This document shows, piece after piece, positions 1 through 28,561 of a stretch of 64,000 nucleotides of DNA. Every line of letters begins with the position of its first letter. The stretch's first letter is position 1. Made by a program: the position numbers and the translations under genes. The DNA comes from Bacteriovoracaceae bacterium (GTDB lineage Bacteria; Bdellovibrionota; Bacteriovoracia; Bacteriovoracales; Bacteriovoracaceae): the NCBI GenBank assembly GCA_018675575.1, contig JABGXW010000029.1, forward strand, positions 21,412 to 85,411. The letters are read 5' to 3'. The notes under the pieces were generated by a model. The model did no database searches, had not been told where the DNA came from, and saw only the letters and a program-made list of their open reading frames with translations.

Positions 1-2961
1 ATGTTATGTCCTCCACCAAATAAAATTGGCTACATGATAATGCTTAGGGGAAAACCAGAAGATCTACCCGAAGAACTTAATAAAATCAAGTTTTATATAA
101 GCAACAAGAATACAAATGATCACTTTGTATTGTCCTGTGGCCCATTAGAAAAAGATCAAATAATCAATCAATTAAATGGCACTAACTTCTCTCCTTATTT
201 ATTGGACAATGTTCATCAACCTTACCATAGTCCTCTAATGGAGGACGTTTCCTACAATTTCCTAGACTACCTTAAGAAAGAAAATTTTCAATTTAAAGAA
301 CCAATTATTCCATATTTTTCAGGAGTTACAAAAGAGATAATTGATAGAGATAATTTTAATCCTAAAAAAATTCTGGCCCTCCTCGCTAATCAAATTGTTA
401 CTCCTGTAGATTTTCCTAATCAAATCAACTCAATAGCGAAAAATAAAACATATACATTCCTGGAGGTTGGCCCAGGCCAATTTTGTACTTCTTGCGTTAA
501 GCGAATATTAAATGATAACAACTATAAGATACTAAAGATAGATAAGTTAGATGGACTAATTAGTCATAAGGTTTCAAACCCAAAAGAAATCAGTACTTCC
601 GTCTTTTTTAAACCAATAAAGTATATCATCGAACGAGTTACTGGTCACAAGGTTTCTGAGGTTGAGTTTAATAAAAGTTTTCAAAACGATTTTGGCATTG
701 ATTCACTAAAGAAAGCTGAGATTGTTTTTGAAGTAATCAAAGAGTCTGAAAAAAACATGAATGTTAAATTTAACAATGAAATCAATCTTGTTGATCTTGA
801 AGTCATCAATGATTTAGTGAACTTACTTGAAGACGAAAGCCAGTCTCAATCTGAATTATCTAAAAAGTCAGTGCCCATAGATATGCATCCTGAAATAGAT
901 TTTTATAATTATCCTGAGCAATTAATACAGTTCACCCTAGATATCAGAAAAACATATAAACATGAAATATATTTAATTACCTCTAATGAAATTCTGTCAT
1001 CTGAAAATAAAGTTAAAACTAAGATCTATCAATCCTTAAATGGCCATATCAATAATGGCAGTTGGATTATTTTTGATATATCCAATTTAATTCACTTAGA
1101 ATTATCACCTTTGACGAATTTTAAGCAGACAGTGATTTCAATTATTCTTTTTTGGCAAAAAACTTTAATCGAGAACAAAGATAGGAGTCTTAAAATTTGT
1201 TTAAAGTTTATTAATTCATTTGAAGAAATGAACCCTTTATTTAATGCTTTTTCAAGTTTTTTCAAGAGTATTCAGCTTGAAAATTCACAGTTTCGGTTTA
1301 AAGGAATTCAAAGTTCATCAGCTTTAGGTCAGGATGAATTATATCAATTACTTTCTACTCCATTTGATAATTCTATTTATAAACTACAAGGCAAATATTT
1401 CAAAATAGGATTTTCAAAAGATACAACAGAAAAAACACAGGTCAATCTCAGCAAAGTACCCTGTATAGTTATAATTGGTGGAGCAGGGGGAATATCCCAA
1501 TCTCTTCTACTTGACCAACCTTTTCCAGTAGAAAGTCAGATATTTTTACTAGGAAGGCGACACAGTAACGATAAAAACATAAAAGATATAATTTTAAGAT
1601 TAAAAAGTTACTACAACCATTTAACTTATTTACAAGTTGACGCATGCAACCATATGGCCTTACGGGACAATTTAAAAAAAGTTCAAGGTGATAAAAATAA
1701 CATAGATCTTTTGATAAATTCTGCTGGTATTGAATATAGCAAAAATTTTATTTATAAAAATTCAGATGAAATAATTAAAGAATTAGATTCTAAATGTATT
1801 ATTTCTCTAAATATCAAAAACTTAACCGACGAAATCAAAATTAATAACATCTTCACATTTTCCTCAATTACGGGTGTTTTTGGAAATAAAGGTCAATCTA
1901 TTTACGCATTTTCAAATGGCTTTATTAATGCTCTCTCACAAAGTTCCTCTAATACTGTAAATTCAAAAGTTATACACTGGCCGGCGTGGGAAGACACAGG
2001 CATGACAGCACTTCCTGGTAACAAATTAGCATTGTTGGACAGACATTTCCATTTAATGCCCAAATATATTGGTAATAAGTTTTTCAGAGATATCTTGTCC
2101 ACTAAAACTCCTCTTAGTAATTTAATTATTTCTGCCCAAGATTTATCAATGTTTCAGCTACATCAATTTAATTATAAATCAATTCGGCCATTTATTGGTA
2201 GTGAGAAAATATCAAACGATCTTAGTTTTTCTTTAAATTTTTCTATACGCTCTCACGTATTTTTGCAGGATCATATTTATAATGGAATCTGCCTTGTTCC
2301 AGGTGCATATATGATATCAATGTTTCTCACAATAGCATTCTTGCATGATATAGAACTAGTTCAAATTAATAATTTTAAAATCTACAATCCTCTAATCATA
2401 AAAGGTGATCAGAATAAAGTTCAATTAATGATTAAGATTGAAAATCAGAAAATGTTTGATGCAAAACTAATTAATCAAAGCAATATTTCTGCTTGTAAAT
2501 TAACTAGTCTCGTTGATTATACAGAAAACAAATGGTGGAGTGAAGATCATGACTTTGATGAAATTACTCCCAAAGTTATTTACGACGATAATCTTTTCCA
2601 TGGTAAAAAATTTCAAACAATAAATAATATACATCTTAAAAAAAACCAGTTAAAAACATCAATAATAATTGCTGATTTACTGCCTTTAACAGGAGTTCAA
2701 AAATTAGATAATTATACTTTATATATAGATACAATTTTTCAACTAATAAATTTACACCCAAATTCTAAATCTCTGAAATTGCCAAATTCCGTATCAAAAT
2801 TATTAATTTTCCCAGATATTATTAATTCAATCAAATTAACTATTTATTGTGAAATAGAAAGAGAAGATAAATTTGAAACCCTTGCGAGGGCAGTAATTTT
2901 AAATGAATTAAATCAAACTTGCATGTTATTAGATGGAATAATTCTTAAGAATATAACTTAG
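1..2961 (+). CDS. PfaA/HglE-type polyketide/PUFA-synthase-like megasynthase, 3-prime part (AT C-terminal half, ACP, KR, DH); the gene continues upstream of the window
   Basis: The ORF is open to the window start. Motifs occur in this order. AT C-terminal half: YHSPLM and FLEVGPGQ, with the GHSxG nucleophile expected upstream of nt 1. ACP: FGIDSL, Ser codon nt 703-705. KR: Rossmann GGAGGIS nt 1477-1497, NSAGI, catalytic Tyr in SIYAFSNG. Hot-dog DH: LQDHxxxGxxxxPGA, His codon nt 2272-2274. AT-ACP-KR-DH is the PfaA-type domain order, not the canonical modular PKS order. Confidence 0.8.
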   Translation: MLCPPPNKIGYMIMLRGKPEDLPEELNKIKFYISNKNTNDHFVLSCGPLEKDQIINQLNGTNFSPYLLDNVHQPYHSPLMEDVSYNFLDYLKKENFQFKEPIIPYFSGVTKEIIDRDNFNPKKILALLANQIVTPVDFPNQINSIAKNKTYTFLEVGPGQFCTSCVKRILNDNNYKILKIDKLDGLISHKVSNPKEISTSVFFKPIKYIIERVTGHKVSEVEFNKSFQNDFGIDSLKKAEIVFEVIKESEKNMNVKFNNEINLVDLEVINDLVNLLEDESQSQSELSKKSVPIDMHPEIDFYNYPEQLIQFTLDIRKTYKHEIYLITSNEILSSENKVKTKIYQSLNGHINNGSWIIFDISNLIHLELSPLTNFKQTVISIILFWQKTLIENKDRSLKICLKFINSFEEMNPLFNAFSSFFKSIQLENSQFRFKGIQSSSALGQDELYQLLSTPFDNSIYKLQGKYFKIGFSKDTTEKTQVNLSKVPCIVIIGGAGGISQSLLLDQPFPVESQIFLLGRRHSNDKNIKDIILRLKSYYNHLTYLQVDACNHMALRDNLKKVQGDKNNIDLLINSAGIEYSKNFIYKNSDEIIKELDSKCIISLNIKNLTDEIKINNIFTFSSITGVFGNKGQSIYAFSNGFINALSQSSSNTVNSKVIHWPAWEDTGMTALPGNKLALLDRHFHLMPKYIGNKFFRDILSTKTPLSNLIISAQDLSMFQLHQFNYKSIRPFIGSEKISNDLSFSLNFSIRSHVFLQDHIYNGICLVPGAYMISMFLTIAFLHDIELVQINNFKIYNPLIIKGDQNKVQLMIKIENQKMFDAKLINQSNISACKLTSLVDYTENKWWSEDHDFDEITPKVIYDDNLFHGKKFQTINNIHLKKNQLKTSIIIADLLPLTGVQKLDNYTLYIDTIFQLINLHPNSKSLKLPNSVSKLLIFPDIINSIKLTIYCEIEREDKFETLARAVILNELNQTCMLLDGIILKNIT

Positions 2962-4649
2962 ATCTTTTCAATTAAATAGTCTTCGATAGCTAAAAATTTC
3001 AAAGGAGATTTTTCAAAAAAATTATAAACATCATTGATATCTTCTACTATCGGTTCCCCCATTGTATTTAAGCTTGTATTCAAGATACAATAAATTCCAG
3101 ATAGGTTTCCATAGTATTTTATTAAGTTATAAAATTTTTCATTTGACTCAAAATGAACAGTCTGAACTCGAGAAGTTTTGTCTTTATGAGTAATTTCTTT
3201 TAACTGATTAGAAAACTTCTCATTTATTGGTAAGGTAAATGACATAAAAGGATTAAGAAAATATTTTTCTACATTAAAATAGAGGTGAACTTTTTCCGCA
3301 AGACAAGCCCCCCCATAGGGTCGAAATTCTTCTCTGAACTTCACCTTGCTATTTAAATAATTCTTTAATTTAGGAAACGAGAGACTGGCCAATAAACTTC
3401 TATGACCTAATGCTCTTTGTCCACATTCGCTTCGGCCCTGAAACCATGCAACAATATTATTTTTATTTAATAATATTGAAACTTCCTTTGATATATTCTC
3501 AAGTTTTGTAACTTTATATTTATTAAAAATTGTAGTTATTTCATGGCCAGTGGGTATTGATAAACTTGATCCATAGTAAGAATGTTGAGCTTTTTTTGCA
3601 ATGACCTTCCATGTAGACCTTTTATCTTTTAAATAGGTGAAGTAAGATAGTCCAAGTGATAATCCCTCATCACCAGGGAAAGGAGGAACATAGATTTGCT
3701 TAAACGTTTTTTGATTAATTAATTCAAAATTATTTGAACAATTTAAAGCACATCCTCCCGTGAAGATTATGTTTTCGTAGTCTGAAAAAGATAATTTAAG
3801 ATCATTAAACTTTCTCTTCATATATTTGGAATATTCATTTTGAGCAGTGGCCGCTAAATCCATATAAAGATTTAGATTCTCTGATTTATCCCAACTGACA
3901 TTATCTGACTTAGAAAATGATTTTGACCAATCTAAGTTCTCTAAGAAGTTAATCCTATCTTTTACAATCATTGGATTTCCAAATGCTGATAATCCCATTA
4001 GCTTTCCGGAGGCCATTTTAGACCCGAACACAAATCTTGCTATATTTTCATAAAAAATTCCTATGCTGTCAGAAAAATATTCATTCATACAAGACTTAGA
4101 GGCTTGAAATTCTTGCCATTCCTTATTTACACATTTAATTTCACCTAAGTTTTGAGTATATACAGACACACTCTCATGTTGATATTTTTTATTTTTAGGT
4201 GCTTCAATTTCCTCTATAACATCGGACTTTCTTGAACCTGACCCATCCACTACAAGAATCAACGACTTTTTAAATGGAGACATTGCCAATGCACAATAGG
4301 CATGTGCATCGTGGTGTCCGATAAACTTTAATTTATTATTATAAACAGAACTATATCTAGTTAACTTTTTAGTTCCTAGATAATTATAAAATGGAAAAGT
4401 CAAATCCATACTTTCTTCATGATCTTTAGGAGTAGTAACATCTCTATTTTCACAAATTATTTCTTCTCCTAGATCTCTAGTATTACAAAGGAGTTCTAAG
4501 GGAAGAAATGGCCAATTGCCAGCATATTTTTTTCTGGTCAGCCTCTCTGTTGATAATATTGTAATATCAGAAATAGAACCATTATAACTAGAGATAGCAC
4601 AAACATTAGAATTATAAATTGTCTTTGCAAGACCTGTAAATGTTTTCAT
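2958..4649 (-). CDS. Carbamoyltransferase, NodU/CmcH/TobZ family
   Basis: 563 aa with HHDAHAYCA, VVDGSG, GGCALN and QRALGHRSLL motifs typical of this family. Its stop overlaps the synthase stop (TTAG). Confidence 0.8.
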   Translation of the reverse strand: MKTFTGLAKTIYNSNVCAISSYNGSISDITILSTERLTRKKYAGNWPFLPLELLCNTRDLGEEIICENRDVTTPKDHEESMDLTFPFYNYLGTKKLTRYSSVYNNKLKFIGHHDAHAYCALAMSPFKKSLILVVDGSGSRKSDVIEEIEAPKNKKYQHESVSVYTQNLGEIKCVNKEWQEFQASKSCMNEYFSDSIGIFYENIARFVFGSKMASGKLMGLSAFGNPMIVKDRINFLENLDWSKSFSKSDNVSWDKSENLNLYMDLAATAQNEYSKYMKRKFNDLKLSFSDYENIIFTGGCALNCSNNFELINQKTFKQIYVPPFPGDEGLSLGLSYFTYLKDKRSTWKVIAKKAQHSYYGSSLSIPTGHEITTIFNKYKVTKLENISKEVSILLNKNNIVAWFQGRSECGQRALGHRSLLASLSFPKLKNYLNSKVKFREEFRPYGGACLAEKVHLYFNVEKYFLNPFMSFTLPINEKFSNQLKEITHKDKTSRVQTVHFESNEKFYNLIKYYGNLSGIYCILNTSLNTMGEPIVEDINDVYNFFEKSPLKFLAIEDYLIEKI

Positions 4650-5510
4650 TTATGAATAGCTTCTTTTTACAATATTAGAATAAACATTAAATCCTGAAGT
4701 TACATCTCCATCGAATACTATTTTTGATTTATCAAGAACAATTAGTCTGTTGCAAATGCTATGGATTTGTTCTCGGTTATGACTGACAAACAAGATCGCT
4801 CCAGATTTATCAATTATATTAATTATTCTTTTTGAAACTTTATCTTTGAAATATTCATCCGCTCCGTCAAAAACTTCATCGAGTATTAATAGATCAGAAC
4901 TTTTTGCTGAGATAACAGATAAACATAACCTTGACTGCATACCCATGCTATATGTTCTAAAAGGTGTATCAATAAATTTTTTCAATTCGCTAAATTTAAT
5001 AGAGTCCTCAATTATTTCTTTCTTCTGTTTATCAGAATATTCTGAATAAATTAGGTTAACTAATAATACAACATTTTCTCTTCCTGTTAACATAGGAAGA
5101 ACACCCACTGAAGTGTTAAATATAAAGCGAACATTTCCATCTATGCATATATCTCCAGTTGTTGGTTTAATCATATCCGTTATACATCTACATAGAGTTG
5201 TTTTTCCAGCTCCATTTATGCCAACAATACCTATCCTTTCATTTTCATAGATATCAAAACTAACCTCCTCTAATACTTGAAATAGTTCAGGAGGGGATGT
5301 GAAGTATGTAATGGGTGATTTTACGAATTGTACAAAAAGATCTCTCATTCCATCAGTTTTAAATTTATCTAGCTCAAATTGTATGGAAAGGTTTTTTATA
5401 GAAGCTATTTTTTTTTTGGGGGTATTTGGTTGTTCATCGCTTTTAAACTTATTCTTTTCTTTAAAATCAAAGGTTTCTTTAATTTGATTTTTTAATTTTA
5501 ATGATGACAT
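4650..5510 (-). CDS. ABC transporter ATP-binding protein, Wzt/TagH/KpsT (polysaccharide-export) type
   Basis: Walker A GINGAGKTT, signature variant YSMGMQSRL (the YSxGM form typical of glycan exporters), Walker B LLILDEV, H-loop VSH. There is an N-terminal extension. No permease partner lies next to it. Confidence 0.8.
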   Translation of the reverse strand: MSSLKLKNQIKETFDFKEKNKFKSDEQPNTPKKKIASIKNLSIQFELDKFKTDGMRDLFVQFVKSPITYFTSPPELFQVLEEVSFDIYENERIGIVGINGAGKTTLCRCITDMIKPTTGDICIDGNVRFIFNTSVGVLPMLTGRENVVLLVNLIYSEYSDKQKKEIIEDSIKFSELKKFIDTPFRTYSMGMQSRLCLSVISAKSSDLLILDEVFDGADEYFKDKVSKRIINIIDKSGAILFVSHNREQIHSICNRLIVLDKSKIVFDGDVTSGFNVYSNIVKRSYS

Positions 5511-5520
5511 TTTTTCTCCA

Positions 5521-6567
5521 TTAATTACTCTTTTTTGAAGTCATATATTTATTTATGAGTCTGATCCTTCTTGATAGCCCAATGACTTGTGAAAGAGGTA
5601 ATTTTTTTTTCATCAATTGTTTTATTAACAAATTATAGTTTTCTTCAATTGTCATTTTGGTCTTCTCATTTAAATTTTGGATTGAATACTTTTCAGGTGT
5701 TCTGAGGTAGTGCAGAGCGACATCCCTTAACTCAAACAAATCGTTGTCTATAAAATAGTGTACCATTTCTGGAAAGTTTTGAATATTTAATGAACTAATT
5801 GTCGTATACGATGTAATGTCCGCATTTGGTAGCTCATTTTTTAGCACTTTTATATTTCTCTCAATCTTTTCCCAGGCAATCCCGGGCCTAATATTCTGGG
5901 CATCTCCATTAATCCCGTCAATACTGATAGAAATTTGTAAATTATTAAACTTTTTTAGATTTTTGATATAGGAGGTTTTTATTGAACTTCCATTAGAATT
6001 AAACTCTAACCTAATATCTGTTCTTTTTAATCTAATTAATTCTTCTAAAAATTCTATTATTTCAGATTGTATAAATGGTTCTCCCCCTGCAATAGTAATT
6101 TTTTTTAATTGATTTAATAGCGGAAAAATATTTTTTTTAATATAGTTTGTATATGTGACAATAGTATTTTCACTACTCCACCTTGAGCTATACTCAGAAC
6201 TACATGTCAAACACTTCATATTACATAGGTTAGAAAATGAAAGGTCTACAGACTCTATTTCTTCTATAGGAGAAGAGGTTATATTGGTATTAATACTTTT
6301 AAATTCTTGTAAAAATACTGACTGTAAACTCTCACCCTTTTGAGTATTTTCTTTTAAAATACAAAATTCACATTGAGGGACAATTTCATCTTTTGACATT
6401 TTTTCTTTTATTAATTTAGATTTATATGAATTTAGAATATCAGCTAAGGGAATTTCATTAATTTCTCCCAAGCAATCACTGGCTTCATAACATGTATATA
6501 TTTTCCCATTCGGTGAAATGAGCACGCTCTTCCACGGCGCAGGGCAATAACTATTATTTATTTTCAT
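5521..6567 (-). CDS. Radical SAM enzyme with N-terminal Cys-rich twitch/SPASM-like module (paralogue 1)
   Basis: N-terminal CPAPW...GKIYTC...C...CEFC module, then the radical SAM triad NLCNMKCLTC (CxxxCxxC), then GGEPF. Confidence 0.7.
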   Translation of the reverse strand: MKINNSYCPAPWKSVLISPNGKIYTCYEASDCLGEINEIPLADILNSYKSKLIKEKMSKDEIVPQCEFCILKENTQKGESLQSVFLQEFKSINTNITSSPIEEIESVDLSFSNLCNMKCLTCSSEYSSRWSSENTIVTYTNYIKKNIFPLLNQLKKITIAGGEPFIQSEIIEFLEELIRLKRTDIRLEFNSNGSSIKTSYIKNLKKFNNLQISISIDGINGDAQNIRPGIAWEKIERNIKVLKNELPNADITSYTTISSLNIQNFPEMVHYFIDNDLFELRDVALHYLRTPEKYSIQNLNEKTKMTIEENYNLLIKQLMKKKLPLSQVIGLSRRIRLINKYMTSKKSN

Positions 6568-6676
6568 ATTTAATAATTTTAATCTATTTTTTAGGTTTAA
6601 TAAATATGATAAAGCCTATTAACTCACATTTCATCTAGAATATCTGTATAATAGCCTGAACGGATGGTGACAAAAG

Positions 6677-7765
6677 ATGAGTGTAAATGTCTATACTGAA
6701 TGGGATCCTCTTCAAGAAATAATTATTGGTAACGTAATAAATACCAAATTAAACTTTGTTATGGATTTTACCTTTAAGCTTTTTTACCATGAAAACATTA
6801 ATGATCAATTAATTAGAAATAATAAAAAACTGCAGCAAAGACTCATTATCCAGAGACAGGAAGATCTTGATAATTTAGCGAATATATTGAGTGATTTGGG
6901 TGTTAAAGTCAAAAGACCTACCATGTTGAATAGTCCATCTGACTTCATAACTCCTAACTTTAAAAGCAATTTACATCCTTCAGACAACCCTAGAGATTTA
7001 GTTCTTATCGTGGGAAATAAAATTATTGAGACCCCCGTCCTAGTTCGTCATAGATATTTTGAAACTGACTTATTGAAACCAATCTTTATGGATTACTTTA
7101 AAAATGGAGCGCACTGGATAAGTGCCCCCAAACCAACTTTAGTTGAGGAATCTTTTGACTATACCTATATTAAAAGTAATGACGCTAATAAACGCTGGGC
7201 GGATGTTAAAGAAGACGACGACAAATTAGAAATAATGTTTGATGCTGCACAATGCATGAAGTTTGGGAGGGATATTATAATGAATATCTCAACGAAAAAT
7301 CACGTATTAGGCGCTGAATGGTTAGAGAGAGAACTAGGCCCTGATTATAAATTACATAGAGTTAATTTAACAGATTATCACTTAGACGGAATGATGATGC
7401 CTCTGGCCCCTGGAAAACTTCTCATTAATCCTATTTCAATGGAAAAAAAGCTACACCTATTACCAGAAGAGCTTCAAAAATGGGATATCATCCATTGTGT
7501 TGATAAGGAAATCGCAACAACAGATGACGAAACTTTATTAATTGCTAGTGAAAATATCAGTGTCAATGTTTTACCGATAAACGAAAAGCAATGCATTGTA
7601 TTTAGTTCCACTGGTAGTGGATTATCTTCCATGAGAAAAAGTTTAGAAGAAAATGGTATCGAAGCAATACCTGTTAGACTTCGGCATTCTAGAGTCTTTG
7701 ACGGTGGCGTACATTGCTGCAGCCTTGATACTATTAGAAAAGGCAACCTTGAAACATATTTTTAA
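6677..7765 (+). CDS. Amidinotransferase (glycine amidinotransferase / StrB1 inosamine-phosphate amidinotransferase family)
   Basis: The C-terminal signature FDGGVHCCSLDTIRKGNLETYF matches the catalytic-Cys block GG-x-HC-x-T/S-x-D-x-R-R/K-G-x-L-x-x-Y of AGAT/StrB1/CyrA/SxtG-type enzymes. Size (362 aa) and the internal H-x-D (DYHLDG) block also fit. Confidence 0.8.
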   Translation: MSVNVYTEWDPLQEIIIGNVINTKLNFVMDFTFKLFYHENINDQLIRNNKKLQQRLIIQRQEDLDNLANILSDLGVKVKRPTMLNSPSDFITPNFKSNLHPSDNPRDLVLIVGNKIIETPVLVRHRYFETDLLKPIFMDYFKNGAHWISAPKPTLVEESFDYTYIKSNDANKRWADVKEDDDKLEIMFDAAQCMKFGRDIIMNISTKNHVLGAEWLERELGPDYKLHRVNLTDYHLDGMMMPLAPGKLLINPISMEKKLHLLPEELQKWDIIHCVDKEIATTDDETLLIASENISVNVLPINEKQCIVFSSTGSGLSSMRKSLEENGIEAIPVRLRHSRVFDGGVHCCSLDTIRKGNLETYF

Positions 7766-7783: not shown

Positions 7784-8929
7784 ATGAAAACTAACATCAA
7801 TTATATTGATGAGAAACTTAACGAAGCCAAAAATATTATAAATGAATTTGAAAAGTTTGGTTTTCAGAAAAATGGATTCTGCCTTGTACCATTCACAACA
7901 ATAATTCTGGAACCTAATGGAAATGTGGGGGTGTGTCGATTACATGGAACCGATAAAGCTATTGGAAGTTTAAATAATAACACTATTGAAGAGATATGGA
8001 ACGGTACTCATTTAAAGAAATGGCGAAGGGAATTTTTAGACGGGAAACCTGAGATTTGTAAAAATCAAATTAAAAATAAAAATTGTAACTTATGTATTGA
8101 AAATAATAAATTACTTAATTCTGTCGAGTTCAATGAAACTCAAACTACTCCTATTCAAAAATTAACAGCAAACTTCAATGGTTTTTGTAATTTAAAATGT
8201 ATAATGTGTGATGTGTGGACATTACCAAATGGTTACTATAATGAACAAAACTTCTGGGGTCCAGCACGAACAACAATTTTCCCTTTTTTAAAAGAAATAG
8301 ATATGCTTTCAGGGGAACCTTTTCTACAAGCTGACACTTATAAATTGATAAAAGAAGTAAGTAGGGTAAATACAAAATGTAAATGGTCAATTACAACCAA
8401 CGCCCATTGGAAACTTAATCAATCTATAAAAGGCCATCTTGACTTAATTGACATAAAGAATTTAATCATCTCTATAGATAGTGTTAATACAAATACCTAT
8501 TCAAATATTAGAAAAGGCGGAAAGCTAGATGTTGTATTGAAAAATGTAGAACACCTCTTGGATTATCAAGAGCAACGACTTAAAAACAATAAATCAAGTT
8601 TAAATATATATGTAAATTTTCTTGTTCAAAAAGAAAACTGGAATGAAATTTCTGACATGATTCAATACTGCATTTCGAATGAGATCATGCCATTCATTTC
8701 ATTTTGTGAAAGGCCAGAAGAATACAGCTTACTAGATTATGACGAAAAATTGAGAATTGAGATTCTCGAGTTCTATTTTTCAAATTTAACTAAAGTAGAA
8801 CTCTTCTTTAGTCTTAGAGTAATTAGACCACTAATTTTTTCTTTACCTGCAATTTTCAAAGCTGATTTTCTAACTAGACTAAATGACATGTCCTTCAATG
8901 ATACCTATCTCCCTGTAGTAAACTTCTAA
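7784..8929 (+). CDS. Radical SAM enzyme with N-terminal twitch/SPASM-like module (paralogue 2)
   Basis: FCLVPF...PNGNVGVCR...NTIEEIWN...C..C module, then GFCNLKCIMC (CxxxCxxC), GEPFLQ, TTNA-W. Collinear with paralogue 4. Confidence 0.7.
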   Translation: MKTNINYIDEKLNEAKNIINEFEKFGFQKNGFCLVPFTTIILEPNGNVGVCRLHGTDKAIGSLNNNTIEEIWNGTHLKKWRREFLDGKPEICKNQIKNKNCNLCIENNKLLNSVEFNETQTTPIQKLTANFNGFCNLKCIMCDVWTLPNGYYNEQNFWGPARTTIFPFLKEIDMLSGEPFLQADTYKLIKEVSRVNTKCKWSITTNAHWKLNQSIKGHLDLIDIKNLIISIDSVNTNTYSNIRKGGKLDVVLKNVEHLLDYQEQRLKNNKSSLNIYVNFLVQKENWNEISDMIQYCISNEIMPFISFCERPEEYSLLDYDEKLRIEILEFYFSNLTKVELFFSLRVIRPLIFSLPAIFKADFLTRLNDMSFNDTYLPVVNF

Positions 8930-8979: not shown

Positions 8980-10803
8980 ATGCTAATTTGGAGGTTTTTT
9001 TTGGATAAAAATAATAACATATTTTGCCTGGCCCCCTGGGTACATGCTCATGTAGATGTAGAAGGAAAGAGGGCCCTATGTGATTTCAGTGATCCTATAG
9101 AGGGTATCTGTAACAATTTATCTCTGAAAGAGTACTGGAATAGTCCTGAAATTAAAGAAAGAAGAGTCATGATGTTAAATGGTCAAGCACCAAAAGAATG
9201 TCATTCATGTTCTAAACGGAGAATTTCAACAGAACCTCATTGTGTAGAATTTAATAATCCATATAAATACCTTGTACCAACGATATTAAGAAATACCAAA
9301 GTTGACGGATCGACGTCCATGAAGCCATTCTATTATGATTATCGTTTCTCTAATATTTGCAACTTTAGTTGTAAGATGTGTTCAGCACCAAATTCTACAT
9401 TAATTGAAAATGAAACAAGAAAGTTTAATAATATAAATCCTAAACAACCTACGTTATATGAGAATAGAAAAGTTAATAATGAGAAAATATATTTACCTGA
9501 GTTTTTACAGAATATTGAAAAAGGACATGTTCAAAAAATATCCTGGGCCGGGGGAGAAACATTAATCACCCCAGAACACTGGGAGGTCATTAATAAGATA
9601 CTTAATCTTGATATGCAAAAAAAAATATGTCTATCATACAGCACTAATTTTAGTATTGAAAACTACAAAGGTACCAAAATCCTTGATATTCTCAAAGACT
9701 TTAAACATATATCTTATGAATTAAGTTTAGATGGAATTAAGGAGGTAGGTGAATTCATTAGATCCGGATTAAACTGGGAAACATTTTATACGAACTTTAA
9801 GAGTTTACCTATTCGTTCAAATCTCGACATCTCATTTGCTATTACGTTGACCATTCCTGGTATTCTCGATATCAAAAATCTCATCGATTTTCTACTAGAA
9901 GATCGACTTAAATATGTTCCTGTTTTTTGTATTGGAGATTATTCAACCGATGTCATGTCTCCCTTTATTCTTCCGAGACATCTTTATGATCAACTGCTCG
10001 ACAATTTCGAAAAGTTGGTAATAGAATACAATGACCCGTATCTTGATAATTTTATTGATTTGATCCATTCAATGAAAAATACGACAATCATTGAGGAATG
10101 TATCAATCTAGATATTAAAGATTTCATTAGTGCAAGAAAGTTTCATTCATTTAGAGAGCAATTAAATCCGCATCAAATAACATTAAATGAAATTTTCAAA
10201 ATTAAATCACCAGATATTTATAAGTGGTGGTTAAAAAGTGATGATGAACTAATAAAAAGCAGTCTTAGCCTAGTTGAATACAGACACATACTTCACAATA
10301 AAGAATGGGATGATAAACATTCTTATTCCAGCGAAACTTTTCAAGAGAAAGTAATTCTTACGACCACATTTAATTTCACGGGAAACTTAGAAACTTCCCC
10401 TAAGCTATTCTATGGTACAAACTTAATTCGTGAGATTACAGACCCTGTTGAGTATCTAAATAAATTATCAAGGCATATTAATAAAGAAGACAGAGTGTCT
10501 CTGATAGATGCTACTGGGAATATATTCAGTTCATGGCTAAATCGAAAAAACTTAAATTCTTATCAAAATAAAATTATCCTATGGCGTTTGATAAACCTTC
10601 CTGCCGATGAGTGGGATCGGAAATTCCCAAATTTAATTATTTTATCTACAAATTATCTTTCCCCGATCTCTTTCATTCTTCGAAATAAAAATGTAGACAA
10701 TAGATTAATATCTATCATTTGTAAGTTTGAATTTTTGGTTAGCTTCCTTAATCCTGTAATCTCGCTACACTTCAGAGTTCTTTTCAAAAGAAGGGACGAT
10801 TGA
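8980..10803 (+). CDS. Radical SAM enzyme with N-terminal twitch/SPASM-like module plus about 200-aa C-terminal extension of unknown function (paralogue 3)
   Basis: FCLAPW...GKRALC...ECHSC module, NICNFSCKMC triad, WAGGETL. The start is uncertain: there is no SD before ATG 8980, and an upstream ATG at 8940 is one T out of frame across a T8 tract. Confidence 0.65.
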   Translation: MLIWRFFLDKNNNIFCLAPWVHAHVDVEGKRALCDFSDPIEGICNNLSLKEYWNSPEIKERRVMMLNGQAPKECHSCSKRRISTEPHCVEFNNPYKYLVPTILRNTKVDGSTSMKPFYYDYRFSNICNFSCKMCSAPNSTLIENETRKFNNINPKQPTLYENRKVNNEKIYLPEFLQNIEKGHVQKISWAGGETLITPEHWEVINKILNLDMQKKICLSYSTNFSIENYKGTKILDILKDFKHISYELSLDGIKEVGEFIRSGLNWETFYTNFKSLPIRSNLDISFAITLTIPGILDIKNLIDFLLEDRLKYVPVFCIGDYSTDVMSPFILPRHLYDQLLDNFEKLVIEYNDPYLDNFIDLIHSMKNTTIIEECINLDIKDFISARKFHSFREQLNPHQITLNEIFKIKSPDIYKWWLKSDDELIKSSLSLVEYRHILHNKEWDDKHSYSSETFQEKVILTTTFNFTGNLETSPKLFYGTNLIREITDPVEYLNKLSRHINKEDRVSLIDATGNIFSSWLNRKNLNSYQNKIILWRLINLPADEWDRKFPNLIILSTNYLSPISFILRNKNVDNRLISIICKFEFLVSFLNPVISLHFRVLFKRRDD

Positions 10804-11871
10804 GCTGGCTGCAGTAATTAATCTTGAGAACTTACCCTCTGTAAGTAAGTCTAGCATCTTAAAATATTTTATTTGTAAATTATTTGGAAATGTTTCCACA
10901 AGTGCTCTTAATACCCGATGAGATATCAACAATTCACGTTGGGACATTTTTGAAAAATAATACTTAAGTATTTTTTTTCGTTGAGCCAGACCTAGTGTCG
11001 AGGGAGATAAATTCTCAGGGCTGTAAACATATTGAACAAATGGAAATAGATTATTTTCTTCACAGAAATTAAGCATTTCTATTATCTGGAAAGCATTTTC
11101 CCGTTGGATAGAAAAATTAATTTCCAAGTGAAAATCTTTTTCTTTTTGAAAAAGTTTAAGGTCGTCAATTGTTTTAAGTGCATTTCCCAATTTACCTGGA
11201 GCGCGAATAGATTCATAGGTCTTAGGATCTACTGTATCTAAACTAACTGATATACGGTTAATTTTAATTTTTCTCAAATGAGACTTTATTGATTCAGAAA
11301 GAGACCATTGTGCGTTTGTCGTAAAGCGCCAAGACAATGCGGGATTCGAGTCTGCTGCCAGGTTAATTATTTTATATAAATCTGGTTGCAGAAATGGTTC
11401 TCCCGCAAGAGGATCGATTTGTATTAAATTTGGAATGATATGCTTTTTTAAATGTTCCCAGAATCCATCTATTTTATCATATTCATGATTAGGCATGGCC
11501 CATATATTACAAAATGGGCATTGAAGGTTACAAAATCCGTTAATGTCTGGCGATAATCTTAATATTGGAGTTTTTACGACCTCCGAGGCGTCAATGTAGG
11601 GCAATAAATCAAGATTAGAGTGTAGCTTATTACAAGAGTTGTGATTGATATATTCTTTGCATGTTACAATATTTCCAGTTAAAAACTCCAGCCTCCAGTC
11701 ACGAAATTTTTTATTGTTCCAAATCTCTTCAATTGTATTTTCGTGAATATTCCCAAGAACATGACCAATACCCAATTCCCTACATGAGCCTACATGTCCA
11801 TTGGGATTTAGAATCAAACTTGCAAAAGGTACTGGACAAAATACCTTGGGTAGTGATTTACCATTTTTCAT
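10765..11871 (-). CDS. Radical SAM enzyme with N-terminal twitch/SPASM-like module (paralogue 4)
   Basis: FCPVPF...PNGHVGSCR...NTIEEIWN module, GFCNLQCPFC triad, GEPFLQ, TTNAQW. Its 3-prime end overlaps paralogue 3 by 39 nt (convergent). Confidence 0.7.
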   Translation of the reverse strand: MKNGKSLPKVFCPVPFASLILNPNGHVGSCRELGIGHVLGNIHENTIEEIWNNKKFRDWRLEFLTGNIVTCKEYINHNSCNKLHSNLDLLPYIDASEVVKTPILRLSPDINGFCNLQCPFCNIWAMPNHEYDKIDGFWEHLKKHIIPNLIQIDPLAGEPFLQPDLYKIINLAADSNPALSWRFTTNAQWSLSESIKSHLRKIKINRISVSLDTVDPKTYESIRAPGKLGNALKTIDDLKLFQKEKDFHLEINFSIQRENAFQIIEMLNFCEENNLFPFVQYVYSPENLSPSTLGLAQRKKILKYYFSKMSQRELLISHRVLRALVETFPNNLQIKYFKMLDLLTEGKFSRLITAASSIVPSFEKNSEV

Positions 11872-11956: not shown

Positions 11957-12247
11957 ATGACTTCATATGCCAATTCAGATATGGTTATTAAAACTGTAGA
12001 CGATATTGTTACTAGAAAAAATGATAATGGTAGTATCATACTTATGAAAATGAACGACTCAGATAATTTTTTCAAGATTGACGGCATAGCATCAATGATC
12101 TGGCGCGAATCTGTAGACAATGGTCGACAACTTGGTGAAATATTTAAGCTAGTAATTGACGGATATGAAGTTGAGGCCAGCACATTGGAAAAAGATATAG
12201 ACAAATTATTACAAGATCTCAGATCCCACAAACTCATTGTTGAATAA
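11957..12247 (+). CDS. PqqD-family protein (RiPP-recognition-element-like peptide chaperone)
   Basis: 96 aa. The pattern DNGSIILMKM..DNFFKIDGIASMIWRE..NGRQLGEIFKLVIDGYEV....LEKDIDKLLQDLRSHKLIVE follows the PqqD family profile (LN-x-x-a-x-x-iW, y-v-x-x-x-x-x-e-x-Dv-x-x-fl-x-x-L-x-x-x-x-li). Good SD (AGAGGT) 8 nt upstream. Confidence 0.65.
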   Translation: MTSYANSDMVIKTVDDIVTRKNDNGSIILMKMNDSDNFFKIDGIASMIWRESVDNGRQLGEIFKLVIDGYEVEASTLEKDIDKLLQDLRSHKLIVE

Positions 12248-13241
12248 ATCTTAAAACATGATTAAGTGTCTCCTTCTCGTTACTTCCATATATAGTATAG
12301 AACTTCGAATTACTTATTAAATTAAACGCCGCCCAGATTCTCATTAGAAATATCTTAATTTTGGTCCAAAAATCCTTAATCCCAAATTCCCAAAATAATT
12401 CTAGAACCTGAGGTGTGCCGACCCCTAAAATAAAATATAAGAATAAGTCTTGATAAATTTCTATACGTTTTGATTTACCTAAAGAGCTTGTTTTACTGTC
12501 CCTATGTAGAAAAATAATATCTTCTCGTTTTTTTTTATCTTGATTTTTATCGTAAAAAAAATCTGCCCTGAGTAAATACTTTACATCATGATTAGTGCGG
12601 ACAAAATTTGACGTATATCCTTTATCATATTTTAACAATTTATTTTGATCTTTAAATCCTAAACGAAGTGGAAAGTGGAACCTATCCTGTGCGGAAACGA
12701 GAGTTATGTCGTCTGATGAATATTTCAAATTATTCTTTGAATTTAATAAATTTAAACATAGTGTTGATTTTCCAATACCAGAAGCCCCGACAAGAATGAA
12801 GTTCTTTTTCTCATTATATACACACATGGAATGAAGTCTGTGAATTCCGTCTATATCTAACATTTTCCCAACTCTAGACAATGTGGCAAGATAGATTATT
12901 TCTCTAGTTAAAATATCATTCTTTGAAAAGATTTTAATTGCTTCACTATCGAAATTTATTTTGAGAAGAAGTTCATCGTAATAATTAATATATCTACAGT
13001 TTTTATATTCATAGAATACTTTCCCATTATATGTTTTAATATTTTGAGATTGATTGTTAAATCTTAAAAGGTCAGGTTTGTCATAAATATGATCAATTTT
13101 AACATGAACAAGATTTGGTTTTCCTCCATCCGCGAATTCAAAGCTTTTAAAGTCAAATGACACATTCTCCAGAAGGCCATTAACAGGAGAATTGATACTG
13201 ACCATTTTACCTAAAAACAAAAAAAATTTACTTGATAACAT
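12234..13241 (-). CDS. HPr-kinase-related P-loop protein (HprK C-terminal-domain-like kinase)
   Basis: The P-loop LVGASGIGKSTL sits in the context typical of the HprK/P C-terminal domain (GxSGxGKS). The N-terminal half has no recognisable motif. Convergent with the PqqD gene, overlapping it by 14 nt. Confidence 0.55.
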   Translation of the reverse strand: MLSSKFFLFLGKMVSINSPVNGLLENVSFDFKSFEFADGGKPNLVHVKIDHIYDKPDLLRFNNQSQNIKTYNGKVFYEYKNCRYINYYDELLLKINFDSEAIKIFSKNDILTREIIYLATLSRVGKMLDIDGIHRLHSMCVYNEKKNFILVGASGIGKSTLCLNLLNSKNNLKYSSDDITLVSAQDRFHFPLRLGFKDQNKLLKYDKGYTSNFVRTNHDVKYLLRADFFYDKNQDKKKREDIIFLHRDSKTSSLGKSKRIEIYQDLFLYFILGVGTPQVLELFWEFGIKDFWTKIKIFLMRIWAAFNLISNSKFYTIYGSNEKETLNHVLRFIQQ

Positions 13242-14112
13242 GGTATTTCCTAGATAAATAAATCACTATCCCGATAAAAATGGCAATCCCATATGCTATA
13301 TGAATAAGTGGAAAGGTTAAAAAGGCAAGAAAAAAACAACCTATCGACGCGGACGCTCTTGCCAAAGAAAAGGAAAATAAAAAATCTAATGTTAGATAAA
13401 TAATTATTACAGGAGCAATATCAGTTGGAAAAATTAAACCATAAATTAATAGCAAAACAAAAAGGAAAGGAAGAAGGTAAATTATCTTTTTCGGAGCAAA
13501 ATTTACAAGAACATGCTTACCACGCGAAAATGCATAATAATAAATTTTTTTTATTACTTTTATATACGATTTACCAATTGTCCTAGTTACAATTGCCTCT
13601 GGATGATACCAGACATCATTTTTATCAACTCTAGATAAAAACTCATTCTCCTCATTGGGATAGAATCCAGGCTTAAAACCATTATTCTTTAAAAAAAAAT
13701 CCTTATTTATTACCATATTACATAATATTAACTCTCTTTCAGTTGATAATCTGGGACACCCAAGAGAAGAGTATCTAGCTCGAGAACTTTGAAAGGCAAA
13801 CCAAGATTTAAAAATATATGAAAAGAAATATGAATTAAAATTTTCTGATCTTATTAAAGCGGGGCCACCAACGACATTTACCCTATTATTATTAATAAAC
13901 TCTTTGTATTTTGCTAAGATATTTTTTGATAATTCACAATCGTCATCTAGAAATAGTAACCAATCGGAATTTGCCTGCCTAGCTGCCTTATTTCTTTGTT
14001 CTGAGGGATCATTCCCCTCCATACAAATAATTTCATCAACCAGATGAATTTTTTTATTTTTTTTCAGCACAACATTTGATATATTTTTACATGCAATTAT
14101 AATCGTAAACAT
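13228..14112 (-). CDS. Family 2 glycosyltransferase with C-terminal transmembrane segments
   Basis: MFTIIIACKN start typical of GT2, PSEQRN, DxD block LFLDDDCEL, hydrophobic C-terminus. I moved the start to ATG 14112, which removes the divergent overlap with the protease gene. The ORF track extends to 14160. Confidence 0.75.
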   Translation of the reverse strand: MFTIIIACKNISNVVLKKNKKIHLVDEIICMEGNDPSEQRNKAARQANSDWLLFLDDDCELSKNILAKYKEFINNNRVNVVGGPALIRSENFNSYFFSYIFKSWFAFQSSRARYSSLGCPRLSTERELILCNMVINKDFFLKNNGFKPGFYPNEENEFLSRVDKNDVWYHPEAIVTRTIGKSYIKVIKKIYYYAFSRGKHVLVNFAPKKIIYLLPFLFVLLLIYGLIFPTDIAPVIIIYLTLDFLFSFSLARASASIGCFFLAFLTFPLIHIAYGIAIFIGIVIYLSRKYHVIK

Positions 14113-14145
14113 AGTTAAATTATATGAGATTAGGTCAATTAAGTC

Positions 14146-15603
14146 GTGATTAAAAATCATTTTTATTTATATTCTCTATGCTATATTTTTTTTTTATCAC
14201 TAACTTCTGGTTGTTTGGTAAATAATGGTTCACAGTCCCTACTTCCAGCGAAATATGACCTTAGAGAATCTAATATTATCACTCTGCCAAAGAAACAGGC
14301 ATGGGGTACCTGCTGGGCACATTCCGCGATCTCATCAATTGAAAGTAACTTTTTATCAAAGCAAAAAGATAAGTCACTAGCAGAGATAAATTTCTCAGAG
14401 TACCATATGGATAAATTTAATGGATTTAATCGTGATGGGATTAAAGGTGAAGTTCTAAATACTGAAAAAAGCGGGCAAGGAATTGATTTCATAGGTTCAA
14501 ATCTCGACGATAGGCAGTCTGGTCTACTGGTCCATCAAGGTGGTGATATGAGAATAGCTACCGCTTACATTGCAAATAATGGAGGAGTAGTTAATGAAAA
14601 AAAATCTCATTTTATTTCTAACTCCCATCAAGATCACGACGTATTCGGGAACACCTCAATTACTGGGATCAAAAGAAGAGATATGTATCGTTATTATTTT
14701 TCACGAGATATTCAATTTCTAACCTTATTTGGCACAAACAGAGAAAAAAGAATCAAAATCAAAAAGGCCATAATTAATCACGGTGCCGTTTCAAGTGGAC
14801 AGGTTCAAACTAATAAACCTTTCGGTTTCTTTAACAATATGGAGGTTCATTTTCACAATGGTAATAAAGAAATTGACCACGCAATCAGCCTCATTGGATG
14901 GAATGATCACCTAGAAGTTGATGGTCATGTTGGAGCATGGCTAGTAAAAGATAGCTTCCATCAAAGTGAAACGACTGGTAAATATATCAAATACTTTTAT
15001 ATTTTATACGATGATATTCATGTAGCAAAAAACCCATTCCACGGCGGCACATCTTTTGCTAATACTCAATTAGAAAAGTTTAATTCCATTTACACTCATT
15101 CTCTTCATGGATGGAGATACACAAGTACAAATCTAAAAATTAAAGCAGTTGCCAGTAAGTATCTAATATCGCGGGAGAAAAAGATCGCGGGAGTTGGCAT
15201 CTATTCTACTCAAGAAAATTCAAGATATGTGCTAACAATACATTCATCATCACTAGATGGTCCTATTGTTTTTACAAAAGTATCAAAAGTTAAATATCCT
15301 GGATTTCACTTTGTTTCAGCCAACTCCCTAAGCATAAAGTCTGGAATATACTTTATAAAACTGGCTCTAAAACGACCAGCCTATCCATATGATGCCTCAT
15401 CTACAGTTGATGTATTATTAAGTGAGACTACTAAAAAAATACAAGTTAACTCCTCTGCCAACAAGGGAGAAAGTTATTATTTAATTGATGGGCAATGGAA
15501 AGACTTTAGCTCGTACAAAGATAAGCATAACCTTCAAAGAAAAAACAGTCATGCTATGAAATACGATACTGCCAATATCTCAATGAATTTGTATACTCAT
15601 TAA
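14146..15603 (+). CDS. Papain-family (C1) cysteine peptidase, predicted lipoprotein
   Basis: Lipobox LTSG-C after a hydrophobic leader. Active-site Cys block QAWGTCWAHSA (papain Q...CGSCWAFS). His block DHAISLIGWND. C-terminal region of about 200 aa is beta-rich. GTG start. Confidence 0.75.
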   Translation: MIKNHFYLYSLCYIFFLSLTSGCLVNNGSQSLLPAKYDLRESNIITLPKKQAWGTCWAHSAISSIESNFLSKQKDKSLAEINFSEYHMDKFNGFNRDGIKGEVLNTEKSGQGIDFIGSNLDDRQSGLLVHQGGDMRIATAYIANNGGVVNEKKSHFISNSHQDHDVFGNTSITGIKRRDMYRYYFSRDIQFLTLFGTNREKRIKIKKAIINHGAVSSGQVQTNKPFGFFNNMEVHFHNGNKEIDHAISLIGWNDHLEVDGHVGAWLVKDSFHQSETTGKYIKYFYILYDDIHVAKNPFHGGTSFANTQLEKFNSIYTHSLHGWRYTSTNLKIKAVASKYLISREKKIAGVGIYSTQENSRYVLTIHSSSLDGPIVFTKVSKVKYPGFHFVSANSLSIKSGIYFIKLALKRPAYPYDASSTVDVLLSETTKKIQVNSSANKGESYYLIDGQWKDFSSYKDKHNLQRKNSHAMKYDTANISMNLYTH

Positions 15604-17405: not shown

Positions 17406-17439
17406 GGTCGTCCGTGACAAGCATAATTTTTTATTTATT

Positions 17440-27552: not shown

Positions 27553-28561
27553 AGAATGGATTTTTAAGAACAAAAGATTCCATATGGAGACAATCGATAT
27601 ACCTGATAAACTCAAGACAGGCGATGTTCTCATCAAACCTTCTCTAGTAGGTATTTGTGGTTCAGATCTTTTTGCGATGGAACTTGTGCAAGATACTAAA
27701 ACATTGCGCTTAGGTCATGAATGGGTTGGAGAAGTTCTCGATCCCAACGGAACTACATTTAAAAAAGGTCAAAAGGTTACAAGCCCTGCCATCTTAGGTT
27801 GTGGTAAATGTGATTTTTGTAATAGAGGAGATTCACATCTCTGTACAAATTGTCTCGTCCTTGGTGGAGAAGAACTTGGACTACTTAGAAATATACTTAT
27901 TATTCATGAACGTCATTTAATTGAAACTCCTGATTTAAATCACTCATCCGCAGTACTCATTGAAGTTGCGGCAGTAAGCTTTGAGGCCCTTCGACAAATA
28001 AAATATCTTGGATATGATAAAAGTCATCAATTACTTATTTTTGGTGCTGGTCCGGTAGGACTTTTCTGTGCACTACAAGCGAAACAAGAAGGTTATAAAT
28101 ATAAGATAATTGAAGTGGATAAATTTAGAGTTCAGTTTGCACGTTCGCTCGGTTTAGATGTTGAGCAAACTCAATCTGCCGTTATGAATAGAGATTATTC
28201 AAAGAAATTTTCATTTATTGTAGATTGCTCAGGGGACGGAAATAATCGTTCAGGCTTTTGGAAATATTTTAATTTCTTTACCTCTGTTGGAGTTAAGGTA
28301 TTAATTGTCGGAAAATATTTAAATAACCCAACAATCAATTCGAACCTCTTCGCAAAGAAAGATTCGACGATAAAATGGATGAGGGGAATGAGCATAGATA
28401 TTCTCAAAGATACATATGATTTTTGGAAAGAAGATATTGAAAAGTTGTCGGATAAAATAATTACTCATCGATTTAGATTTAACGAAGTAGCTGAAGCCTT
28501 TGATGTTGCAATGAAGAGAAAAGATTCAATCAAAGTTGTTATTGATTTTTCAATAGACTAA
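27530..28561 (+). CDS. Zn-dependent medium-chain alcohol/polyol dehydrogenase
   Basis: GICGSDL, GHEWVGEV, structural-Zn cysteines CGKCDFCNRGDSHLC, Rossmann IFGAGPVGL. Overlaps the upstream fusion gene by 23 nt. Confidence 0.8.
   Translation: MEQYVEIKEWIFKNKRFHMETIDIPDKLKTGDVLIKPSLVGICGSDLFAMELVQDTKTLRLGHEWVGEVLDPNGTTFKKGQKVTSPAILGCGKCDFCNRGDSHLCTNCLVLGGEELGLLRNILIIHERHLIETPDLNHSSAVLIEVAAVSFEALRQIKYLGYDKSHQLLIFGAGPVGLFCALQAKQEGYKYKIIEVDKFRVQFARSLGLDVEQTQSAVMNRDYSKKFSFIVDCSGDGNNRSGFWKYFNFFTSVGVKVLIVGKYLNNPTINSNLFAKKDSTIKWMRGMSIDILKDTYDFWKEDIEKLSDKIITHRFRFNEVAEAFDVAMKRKDSIKVVIDFSID

Follow-up and report, generated by a model that had tools for sequence, protein, structure and literature searches.

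What an amidinotransferase and a carbamoyltransferase might be making together, when they are encoded almost side by side and next to a polyketide synthase (PKS), is the question raised by a 64,000-nucleotide stretch of a Bacteriovoracaceae genome. This stretch (G000:C135:21412-85411), termed the window below, is part of a 3.7-Mb genome that is 92% complete; here and elsewhere G-numbers denote sampled genomes, C-numbers contigs and L-numbers retrieved loci. An initial annotation, made from the sequence alone, had tied the two enzymes to the synthase. The best explanation of the evidence now assembled is that both belong to an accessory biosynthetic island of the Bacteriovoracaceae, rich in radical S-adenosylmethionine (SAM) enzymes, and not to a polyketide, aminocyclitol or saxitoxin-type pathway. 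Their role within that island can be stated only tentatively, a probability of about 45% being assigned to the reading in which they modify a sugar that carries amine and hydroxyl groups and forms part of an exported glycoconjugate.

Proteins were compared with Pfam and NCBIfam profiles for domains and, using phmmer, with the PDB for solved structures. The open reading frame (ORF) at 6677-7765 has no match in Pfam or NCBIfam, even at an E value of 10, and its identity comes from the PDB search. Its residues 3-361 align full length with HsvA (5WPI; E 6.5e-58, 199.7 bits), the polyamine amidinotransferase of Erwinia amylovora, which is marginally the best-scoring solved relative. Human AGAT (1.9e-52), StrB1 (1BWD; 7.3e-52) and SxtG (6U1R; 2.3e-49) follow at 172-182 bits, and no arginine deiminase or DDAH chain is matched at E<=1. 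In a HMMER alignment to 1JDW, the catalytic triad Asp254/His303/Cys407 (AGAT numbering), which HsvA shares, is kept, as are the guanidino-binding residues Asp170 and Asp305 and Ser355; the triad and both guanidino-binding residues are also kept throughout the alignment of the protein's own clade. By these comparisons the ORF is confirmed as encoding a genuine AGAT/StrB1-family amidinotransferase (predicted pentein fold, EC 2.1.4.-), as the initial annotation had claimed, with nothing to place it in the arginine deiminase or DDAH branch of the superfamily.

The acceptor of the enzyme is less readily predicted. Since all solved members give much the same bit score (172-200), it appears roughly equidistant from every characterised subgroup. 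The glycine-specific 300-flap of AGAT and CyrA (Asn300/Met302 in AGAT) is not present; the flap reads LTD-YHLD in place of KDPNPMHID, with a three-residue deletion and a Tyr replacing Met302. Ahead of the catalytic His the flap is thus of StrB1-like length, three residues less than in AGAT and HsvA, although a segment between the ‘FD’ and ‘MFDAA’ motifs that is missing from StrB1 exists here. Pocket residues vary across genomic contexts, both at ETP vs ETS(C) and in the Tyr, His or Asn that precedes the catalytic His.

The closest homologues are found in metagenome-assembled genomes (MAGs) of the Bacteriovoracaceae, and there are hundreds of metagenomic relatives at ~50% identity. Within the family the gene occurs in 23 of 150 sampled genomes, and is therefore accessory. 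A tree built from 83 homologues of genome, metagenome and phage origin places the protein in a Bdellovibrionota clade (23 rows, SH-aLRT 99), the sister of which comprises DPANN archaea, Omnitrophota and the Campylobacter phage CP220; cyanobacterial and actinomycete homologues fall elsewhere. AGAT, StrB1, CyrA, SxtG and HsvA are not among its tips, and the placement relative to these characterised enzymes rests on the near-equal PDB scores together with the tree. A second type of amidinotransferase, ~36% identical to that of the window, was observed in seven other Bacteriovoracaceae genomes (G013, G015, G022, G106, G137, G145 and G008); both its identity and the range over which it matches (about 7-355) equal those seen for CP220. 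In the literature, no paper was found that ties amidinotransferases to Bdellovibrio-like organisms.

The carbamoyltransferase (2958-4649) scores 67.7 bits against Carbam_trans_N (1.6e-18) and 187.6 bits against Carbam_trans_C (1.7e-55), where the cut-offs are 24 and 27, and its solved relatives are TobZ, GdmN, NovN and 7XB6 (E 1e-38 to 1e-45). With TobZ, GdmN, NovN and NodU it shares a two-domain architecture, Kae1-like and YrdC-like, in which the metal-ligand motifs (HxxxH and the Asp ligands of DG and GD) and the carbamoyl-adenylate motifs of the YrdC-like part are kept, including the TobZ-type signatures GRxExGxRALGxRS, KxRExFRP and NTSxN. The segments GHHDAHAY, VVDGSG, PGDEG, GRSECGQRALGHRS, KFREEFRP and NTSLN align with GdmN, 7XB6 and a paralogue. 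It differs from the TobZ group in its divergent N-terminal 100 residues, Pfam coverage starting at residue 97. Housekeeping identities were considered and rejected: HypF reaches 15 bits (E 0.0044) against a cut-off of 466, and TsaD gives no NCBIfam match. The ORF is confirmed as a NodU/TobZ-type O-carbamoyltransferase, not a housekeeping enzyme of the HypF/TsaD kind, and the second enzyme assignment of the initial annotation (NodU/CmcH/TobZ type) is upheld along with the first. The genome encodes a second carbamoyltransferase (605 aa, 28% identical to the window copy) on contig C113, in a sugar-type cluster (L089, G000:C113 3914-10872) with a DegT aminotransferase, a vitamin B12-type (B12) radical SAM enzyme and, nearby, an NDP-sugar epimerase/dehydratase-type gene.

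Which genes travel with the amidinotransferase was examined in 84 related loci from genomes and assemblies, queried with 30 proteins of the island; the clade counts given here rest on 23 non-redundant loci of the Bdellovibrionota clade. Homologues of a radical SAM family with an N-terminal twitch module are found in 18 of these 23 loci, DegT aminotransferases in nine and the carbamoyltransferase, within 10 kb of the amidinotransferase, in seven. The N-terminal-twitch radical SAM family is the dominant conserved partner of the amidinotransferase, and it was overlooked in the initial annotation; no paper describing this family was found. A Pfam tally of the 115 ORFs lying within three genes of the amidinotransferase gives the same picture, with 36 Radical_SAM proteins (24 of them with SPASM), six DegT, six carbamoyltransferases, five family 1 glycosyltransferases (GT1), three S74 proteins and two PqqD proteins.

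The pairing of amidinotransferase and carbamoyltransferase is a real, recurring association and more than chance, as it recurs in those seven loci and is adjacent and divergent in four. In these four (L017, L020, L022 and L027) nothing separates the amidinotransferase from the divergent carbamoyltransferase gene, and DegT comes next; L013 also has a DegT homologue beside the pair. DegT homologues extend beyond the clade, being present in 11 of 17 sister-clade loci from DPANN archaea and Omnitrophota (16 placed by the tree, plus L034 from Woesearchaeota, which was left out of it) vs 1 of 37 loci of the actinomycete and cyanobacterial clades. Among 117 neighbours in L030-L064 (DPANN archaea, Omnitrophota and Patescibacteria) were 11 NUDIX proteins, nine thymidylate-kinase-like proteins, six GFO/IDH/MocA proteins, four DegT and four deoxynucleoside-kinase-like proteins, which hints at a nucleotide-linked or phosphorylated amine as substrate and is among the observations that make a plain glycan reading harder.

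In the window itself, the interval 2958-7765 holds four genes, for the carbamoyltransferase, a Wzt/TagH-type ATP-binding cassette (ABC) ATPase, a radical SAM enzyme and the amidinotransferase (Table 1). Two divergent, tightly packed operons flank the 109-bp region upstream of the last: radical SAM enzyme 1, the ATPase and the carbamoyltransferase run leftward, and the amidinotransferase and radical SAM enzymes 2 and 3 rightward. A single promoter-like site was seen in this region, at 6623-6652 (+), the scan yielding no more sites than shuffled sequence. The contig encodes five radical SAM enzymes of the NF033640 family, in which the twitch/SPASM module is N-terminal, and four of these lie inside the window; in enzyme 1, for example, SPASM occupies residues 8-69 and Radical_SAM residues 110-270.

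Table 1. Features of the island and its surroundings (window positions unless a locus label is given)
Feature	Position	Strand	Evidence
C-terminal 986 aa of 1142-aa AT-ACP-KR-DH polyketide synthase protein	1..2961	+	Pfam KR, PKS_DH_N, Acyl_transf_1; NCBIfam ACP
NodU/CmcH/TobZ-family O-carbamoyltransferase (predicted), 563 aa, final gene of leftward operon	2958..4649	-	Pfam, PDB
Wzt/TagH-type ABC exporter ATPase	4650..5510	-	NCBIfam Wzt/RfbE 1.9e-43, TagH 3.3e-36
N-terminal-twitch radical SAM enzyme 1, divergent from amidinotransferase	5521..6567	-	NCBIfam NF033640 5.8e-71
Divergent intergenic region, 109 bp	6568..6676	.	ORF layout
AGAT/StrB1-family amidinotransferase (predicted), 362 aa, Bdellovibrionota-specific clade	6677..7765	+	PDB phmmer, catalytic residues, tree
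N-terminal-twitch radical SAM enzyme 2	7784..8929	+	NF033640 3.4e-24; Pfam SPASM ahead of Radical_SAM
N-terminal-twitch radical SAM enzyme 3, 607 aa	8980..10803	+	NF033640 5.3e-79
N-terminal-twitch radical SAM enzyme 4, convergent with enzyme 3	10765..11871	-	NF033640 8.4e-29
PqqD-type small protein (peptide-binding RRE fold)	11957..12247	+	Pfam PqqD 4.2e-10; kept in L004, L020, L022, L027
HprK-like P-loop kinase-like protein	12234..13241	-	Weak NCBIfam HprK_rel_A, 1e-4; homologues in L004-L006, L015
GT2 glycosyltransferase	13228..14160	-	Pfam Glycos_transf_2 6.7e-10
Radical SAM/SPASM fused to DegT-family NDP-sugar aminotransferase, 647 aa	25609..27552	+	Pfam DegT 7.9e-75, Radical_SAM, SPASM
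Zn-dependent alcohol dehydrogenase, overlapping the fusion gene	27530..28561	+	Sub-cut-off NCBIfam matches
N-terminal-twitch radical SAM enzyme, fifth NF033640 copy	L003:4374-5720 (outside window)		NF033640 1.9e-84

The contig also carries genes of glycan type. Domain scans covering 45 kb, including 21 kb read upstream of the window, found two GT1 and two GT2 glycosyltransferases, the Wzt ATPase, an HGSNAT-like acyltransferase and an ABC-2 (Wzm-type) permease (ABC2_membrane; L002:9998-10750, minus strand, ~10.7 kb upstream of the window start). Because the contig encodes this permease too, the Wzt ATPase is not an orphan, and in L005 the Wzm and Wzt genes stand side by side; the ATPase, permease and glycosyltransferases that characterise Wzm/Wzt glycan assembly are thus all on the contig. 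Also present are two DegT aminotransferases, a B12 radical SAM enzyme, a 2-oxoglutarate (2OG) oxygenase and further SPASM radical SAM enzymes. The DegT proteins score best against the NDP-sugar aminotransferases WecE, PseC, LegC and ArnB. One of them is fused to a radical SAM/SPASM module, and matches dTDP-4-amino-4,6-dideoxygalactose transaminase (4e-60) as well as WecE and PseC; it could be a source of the amine on which the amidinotransferase may act. The alcohol dehydrogenase (ADH) that overlaps it has matches resembling threonine 3-dehydrogenase and scyllo-inosose 3-dehydrogenase (E 1e-26 to 1e-28, below cut-off), and is also its neighbour in L004. The two genes (25609-28561) resemble an integrated unit that first oxidises and then transaminates, and can be compared with BtrN plus BtrS. 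At the island edge, a 592-aa FAD-dependent protein (28562-30340, minus strand) has weak matches to the halogenase CmlS and to geranylgeranyl reductase. Four conserved island proteins of 336, 315, 360 and 621 aa gave no usable match in relaxed Pfam searches.

If the two transferases do tailor a sugar, a pathway can be proposed in which the ADH or the BtrN-like radical SAM module would oxidise a sugar hydroxyl, either on an NDP-sugar or on a sugar already in the chain, and the resulting ketone would be transaminated by a DegT enzyme to a primary amine. The amidino group of L-arginine would then pass by way of the active-site Cys of the amidinotransferase to this amine, in a ping-pong reaction yielding a guanidino sugar and ornithine. 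The carbamoyltransferase would convert carbamoyl phosphate and ATP to carbamoyl-AMP and O-carbamoylate a hydroxyl, the five twitch radical SAM paralogues may carry out further C-H chemistry, and assembly by the glycosyltransferases would be followed by export through the ABC-2 system. This proposal is favoured by the intact active-site residues, the co-occurrence of carbamoyltransferase and DegT, the likeness of the DegT proteins to NDP-sugar aminotransferases, the persistence of DegT into the sister clade, the glycan-type genes on the contig, the sugar-type cluster around the second carbamoyltransferase and the existence of glycosyltransferase-bearing parallels in phages.

These parallels came from searching GenBank phages by tblastn and from 80 amidinotransferase loci in IMG/VR. 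In Campylobacter phages, the amidinotransferase of CP220 is 36.7% identical to that of the window and sits among five radical SAM genes and two glycosyltransferase-like genes. The radical SAM and amidinotransferase set of CP220 and CPt10 is the ‘interchangeable module’ of Timms et al. 2010, given without function (PMC2853527). Orthology of the CP220 radical SAM genes with those of the window was rejected, as only weak core matches were found (E 1e-5 to 1e-8); the CP220 parallel is therefore one of composition, and it is uncultured T4-like phages in IMG/VR that carry real homologues. N-terminal-twitch homologues occur in 25 of the 80 loci, homologues of the fifth paralogue in 21 (up to 38% identity, E 1e-99), DegT in 10 and an S74 protein in six. 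Among these records there is one complete T4-like genome (230 kb), which encodes a major capsid protein of the T4 type (Gp23). A block in the cyanophage S-SCSM2R comprises glycosyltransferases, a DegT-like gene, a radical SAM gene, 2OG oxygenases and an amidinotransferase. The window contig shows the same composition as CP220/CPt10, S-SCSM2R and the T4-like phages, namely radical SAM enzymes (here several paralogues), one AGAT-family gene and glycosyltransferases, whereas the Wzm/Wzt exporter, PqqD and HprK-like kinase are additions of the bacterial island.

Comparison with characterised guanidino pathways does not lead to a familiar product. In the streptidine branch of streptomycin, a dehydrogenase and then the DegT-type aminotransferase StsC act before the amidinotransferase StrB1. 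The window protein is of the same family as StrB1, with the same triad and flap length, and its lineage co-occurs with DegT and a dehydrogenase; it differs in belonging to a separate Bdellovibrionota clade, in a context rich in radical SAM, glycosyltransferase and ABC-2 genes, and in a genome where the entry enzymes were not found. No match to myo-inositol-1-phosphate synthase (PF01658) was found in the 92%-complete genome, nor any 2-deoxy-scyllo-inosose (DOI) or EEVS-type cyclase, its single DHQ_synthase gene being aroB within an aroA-aroB-aroC operon. On these grounds an aminocyclitol pathway (streptidine or 2-deoxystreptamine) was rejected. The hsv gene context of HsvA is presumably also unlike that of the window. 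With the CyrA and SxtG pathways the window shares the amidinotransferase family, a carbamoyltransferase corresponding to SxtI and, in this strain, an adjacent PKS. It differs in that no SxtA-like AONS domain, sulfotransferase or loader of the non-ribosomal peptide synthetase (NRPS)-PKS type was found, conservation of the amidinotransferase does not extend to the PKS, and the cyanobacterial homologues form another clade. Neither AONS, NRPS, an adenylation/CoA-ligase loader nor a thioesterase was seen in the scans of 45 kb of the contig. The initial annotation had itself remarked on the absence of such hallmark partners, which the wider search bears out, and the streptomycin-, saxitoxin- or cylindrospermopsin-like logic that it had drawn on finds no footing here.

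The PKS deserves consideration in its own right, as it is the feature that first suggests a product. An acyltransferase-acyl carrier protein-ketoreductase-dehydratase (AT-ACP-KR-DH) gene, which begins 467 nt ahead of the window, is preceded by a separate gene for a 681-aa ketosynthase (KS), and the protein with ACP, KR and DH elements reported beside the two transferases is indeed there. It might be supposed that a polyketide built by these two proteins receives its guanidino starter or decoration from the amidinotransferase, in the manner of cylindrospermopsin, and is then carbamoylated. CyrA plus its PKS is a precedent (PMC12371840), the PKS and carbamoyltransferase stop codons overlap at 2958-2961, and in three actinomycete loci weak KS-like matches occur close to distant homologues of the amidinotransferase. 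The overlap is between opposite strands, however, and the PKS sits between the carbamoyltransferase and a GT1 gene, interrupting an operon that the closest relative keeps intact. In that locus, L004, the amidinotransferase is 79% identical and gene order is kept from GT1 to the radical SAM-DegT fusion, with the carbamoyltransferase directly abutting GT1. None of the 23 clade loci has the PKS pair, and the 1142-aa protein has only weak matches, in two of the 150 family genomes, at 28-31% identity, and in none of three same-genus genomes; together with the missing loader, NRPS and thioesterase, this makes a PKS-linked product highly improbable. A PKS partnership with the amidinotransferase was rejected on the clade and family counts. 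The pair is instead a strain-specific insertion and not a conserved partner of the island, contributing at most a strain-specific acyl decoration. Genome-mining tools would, on account of this recent insertion, wrongly label the locus a guanidino-polyketide cluster. Of the product first proposed, a guanidinylated and carbamoylated metabolite or glycan, what stands is the enzymes, their pairing and, in view of GT1, GT2, DegT and Wzm/Wzt, the glycan option; the functional link to the synthase and a PKS-linked product do not. L004 also lacks a block at 14146-20093, its GT2 gene running directly into the HGSNAT-like gene, so that this is a second strain-specific insertion and the island is a hot spot for such events. 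Encoded in the block are a papain-like protease that carries a lectin domain, a tetratricopeptide repeat (TPR)/GT-C-like protein (624 aa), a pilin-like protein (600 aa) and an ORF of 219 aa. Elsewhere in the genome lies a second PKS-like ORF of 1062 aa (G000:C132:3373-4575, L096), which shares 28% identity with the AT region of the window PKS.

The tailoring of a glycoconjugate sugar, favoured above, has to be set against several observations that weigh against it. An NDP-sugar nucleotidyltransferase, a 4,6-dehydratase and a priming phosphoglycosyltransferase, of the kind expected in a Wzm/Wzt locus, are missing from the contig, PF02397, PF00953, PF00483 and PF16363 all lying on other contigs. 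To our knowledge, no biochemical precedent exists for an enzyme that places an amidino group on a glycan or an NDP-amino sugar. No match to the window carbamoyltransferase was found within 10 kb of the amidinotransferase in any of the 80 viral loci. The invariant core comprises just the amidinotransferase and an N-terminal-twitch radical SAM enzyme: in two Bacteriovoracaceae/Halobacteriovoraceae MAGs (L018:8745-12128 and L019:8737-12088) these two, with a DAO-family FAD oxidoreductase, form a minimal module inserted between ftsH/tilS and tex with neither glycosyltransferase nor DegT, and four clade amidinotransferases stand alone. Such minimal loci and stand-alone copies would fit a free small-molecule acceptor. 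The core might then make a low-molecular-weight guanidino metabolite from arginine and a small amine, to be carbamoylated and exported by the ABC system, with the glycosyltransferases serving a separate function. The characterised relatives AGAT, CyrA, AmtA, HsvA, StrB1 and SxtG all use small soluble amines (PMC12371840, PMC4887976), and HsvA, as noted, is the solved relative that scores best. Yet in both the window genome and L004 the two transferase genes lie in tightly packed operons, interspersed with genes for glycosyltransferases, DegT and Wzt, DegT sugar aminotransferases are phylogenetically the most persistent neighbours other than radical SAM enzymes, and exporters of the Wzm/Wzt ABC-2 type usually carry glycans or glycolipids. 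A free metabolite is accordingly regarded as rather unlikely, if a serious contender. The minimal module of L018 and L019 may show the core chemistry stripped of glycan add-ons.

PqqD, the SPASM-type radical SAM enzymes, the HprK-like kinase and a conserved small S74 protein point away from a sugar in another direction, towards a peptide or protein substrate. In a pathway resembling that of ribosomally synthesised, post-translationally modified peptides (RiPPs), PqqD, whose fold is that of the RiPP recognition element (RRE), would present a peptide or small protein to SPASM/twitch radical SAM enzymes for crosslinking or epimerisation; the amidinotransferase would make a guanidino group on a Lys or Orn side chain or the N-terminus, the carbamoyltransferase and glycosyltransferases would decorate Ser/Thr, and the ABC system would export the product. 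The adjoining PqqD and kinase genes, the many SPASM-type enzymes and the lack of a priming glycosyltransferase in the island would all suit such a scheme. So would the S74 protein (142 aa, Peptidase_S74 domain; L003:5838-6266, plus strand, ~5.3 kb upstream of the window start), which in L004, L013, L020, L022 and L027 is found together with PqqD and the amidinotransferase, and whose homologues lie near the amidinotransferase in the six viral loci mentioned. Its N-terminal 38 residues are invariant (KKxYxFGG...LNDxxYLDVFAG), ending in YLDVFAG immediately before SD, where the intramolecular-chaperone domain begins at a self-cleavage-type motif, SD(x)(R/L)xK. The protein may itself be the peptide or protein substrate that is otherwise missing, or else a mini-fibre. 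That N-terminus is, however, highly conserved and not variable as a core peptide would be, PqqD and the S74 protein are missing from most clade loci (two and three of the 115 neighbours), the DegT enzymes resemble NDP-sugar aminotransferases, and action on peptides is not known for any AGAT-family enzyme. A RiPP-like product, with the amidino transfer and Ser/Thr decoration just described, is for these reasons distinctly unlikely. The LPP RiPP paper makes no mention of amidino- or carbamoyltransferases.

Taken singly, the two transferases are ordinary members of known families, and it is their island setting that is unusual. The island, which is uncharacterised, recurs in the Bdellovibrionota and in large phages, and the amidinotransferase has relatives in DPANN archaea. 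Should the favoured reading be correct, the chemistry of a glycan or glycoprotein bearing a guanidino sugar would be new, and the gene module that was described from Campylobacter phages in 2010 would have gained a first function. It is attractive to go further and to suppose that the amidinotransferase and its N-terminal-twitch radical SAM partner form the core of a mobile pathway common to predatory Bacteriovoracaceae and large phages, one that builds a new guanidino sugar for adhesive fibres, where its positive charge would tune attachment to prey or host; this extension is speculative and, as matters stand, unlikely. If true, the guanidino sugar, in this organism also carbamoylated, would be carried by the predator's pilin or S74-type fibres and by phage tail fibres. 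A product that proved to be a guanidino- and carbamoyl-decorated glycan or glycoprotein would represent a new cationic sugar modification for the biology of both cell surfaces and virions.

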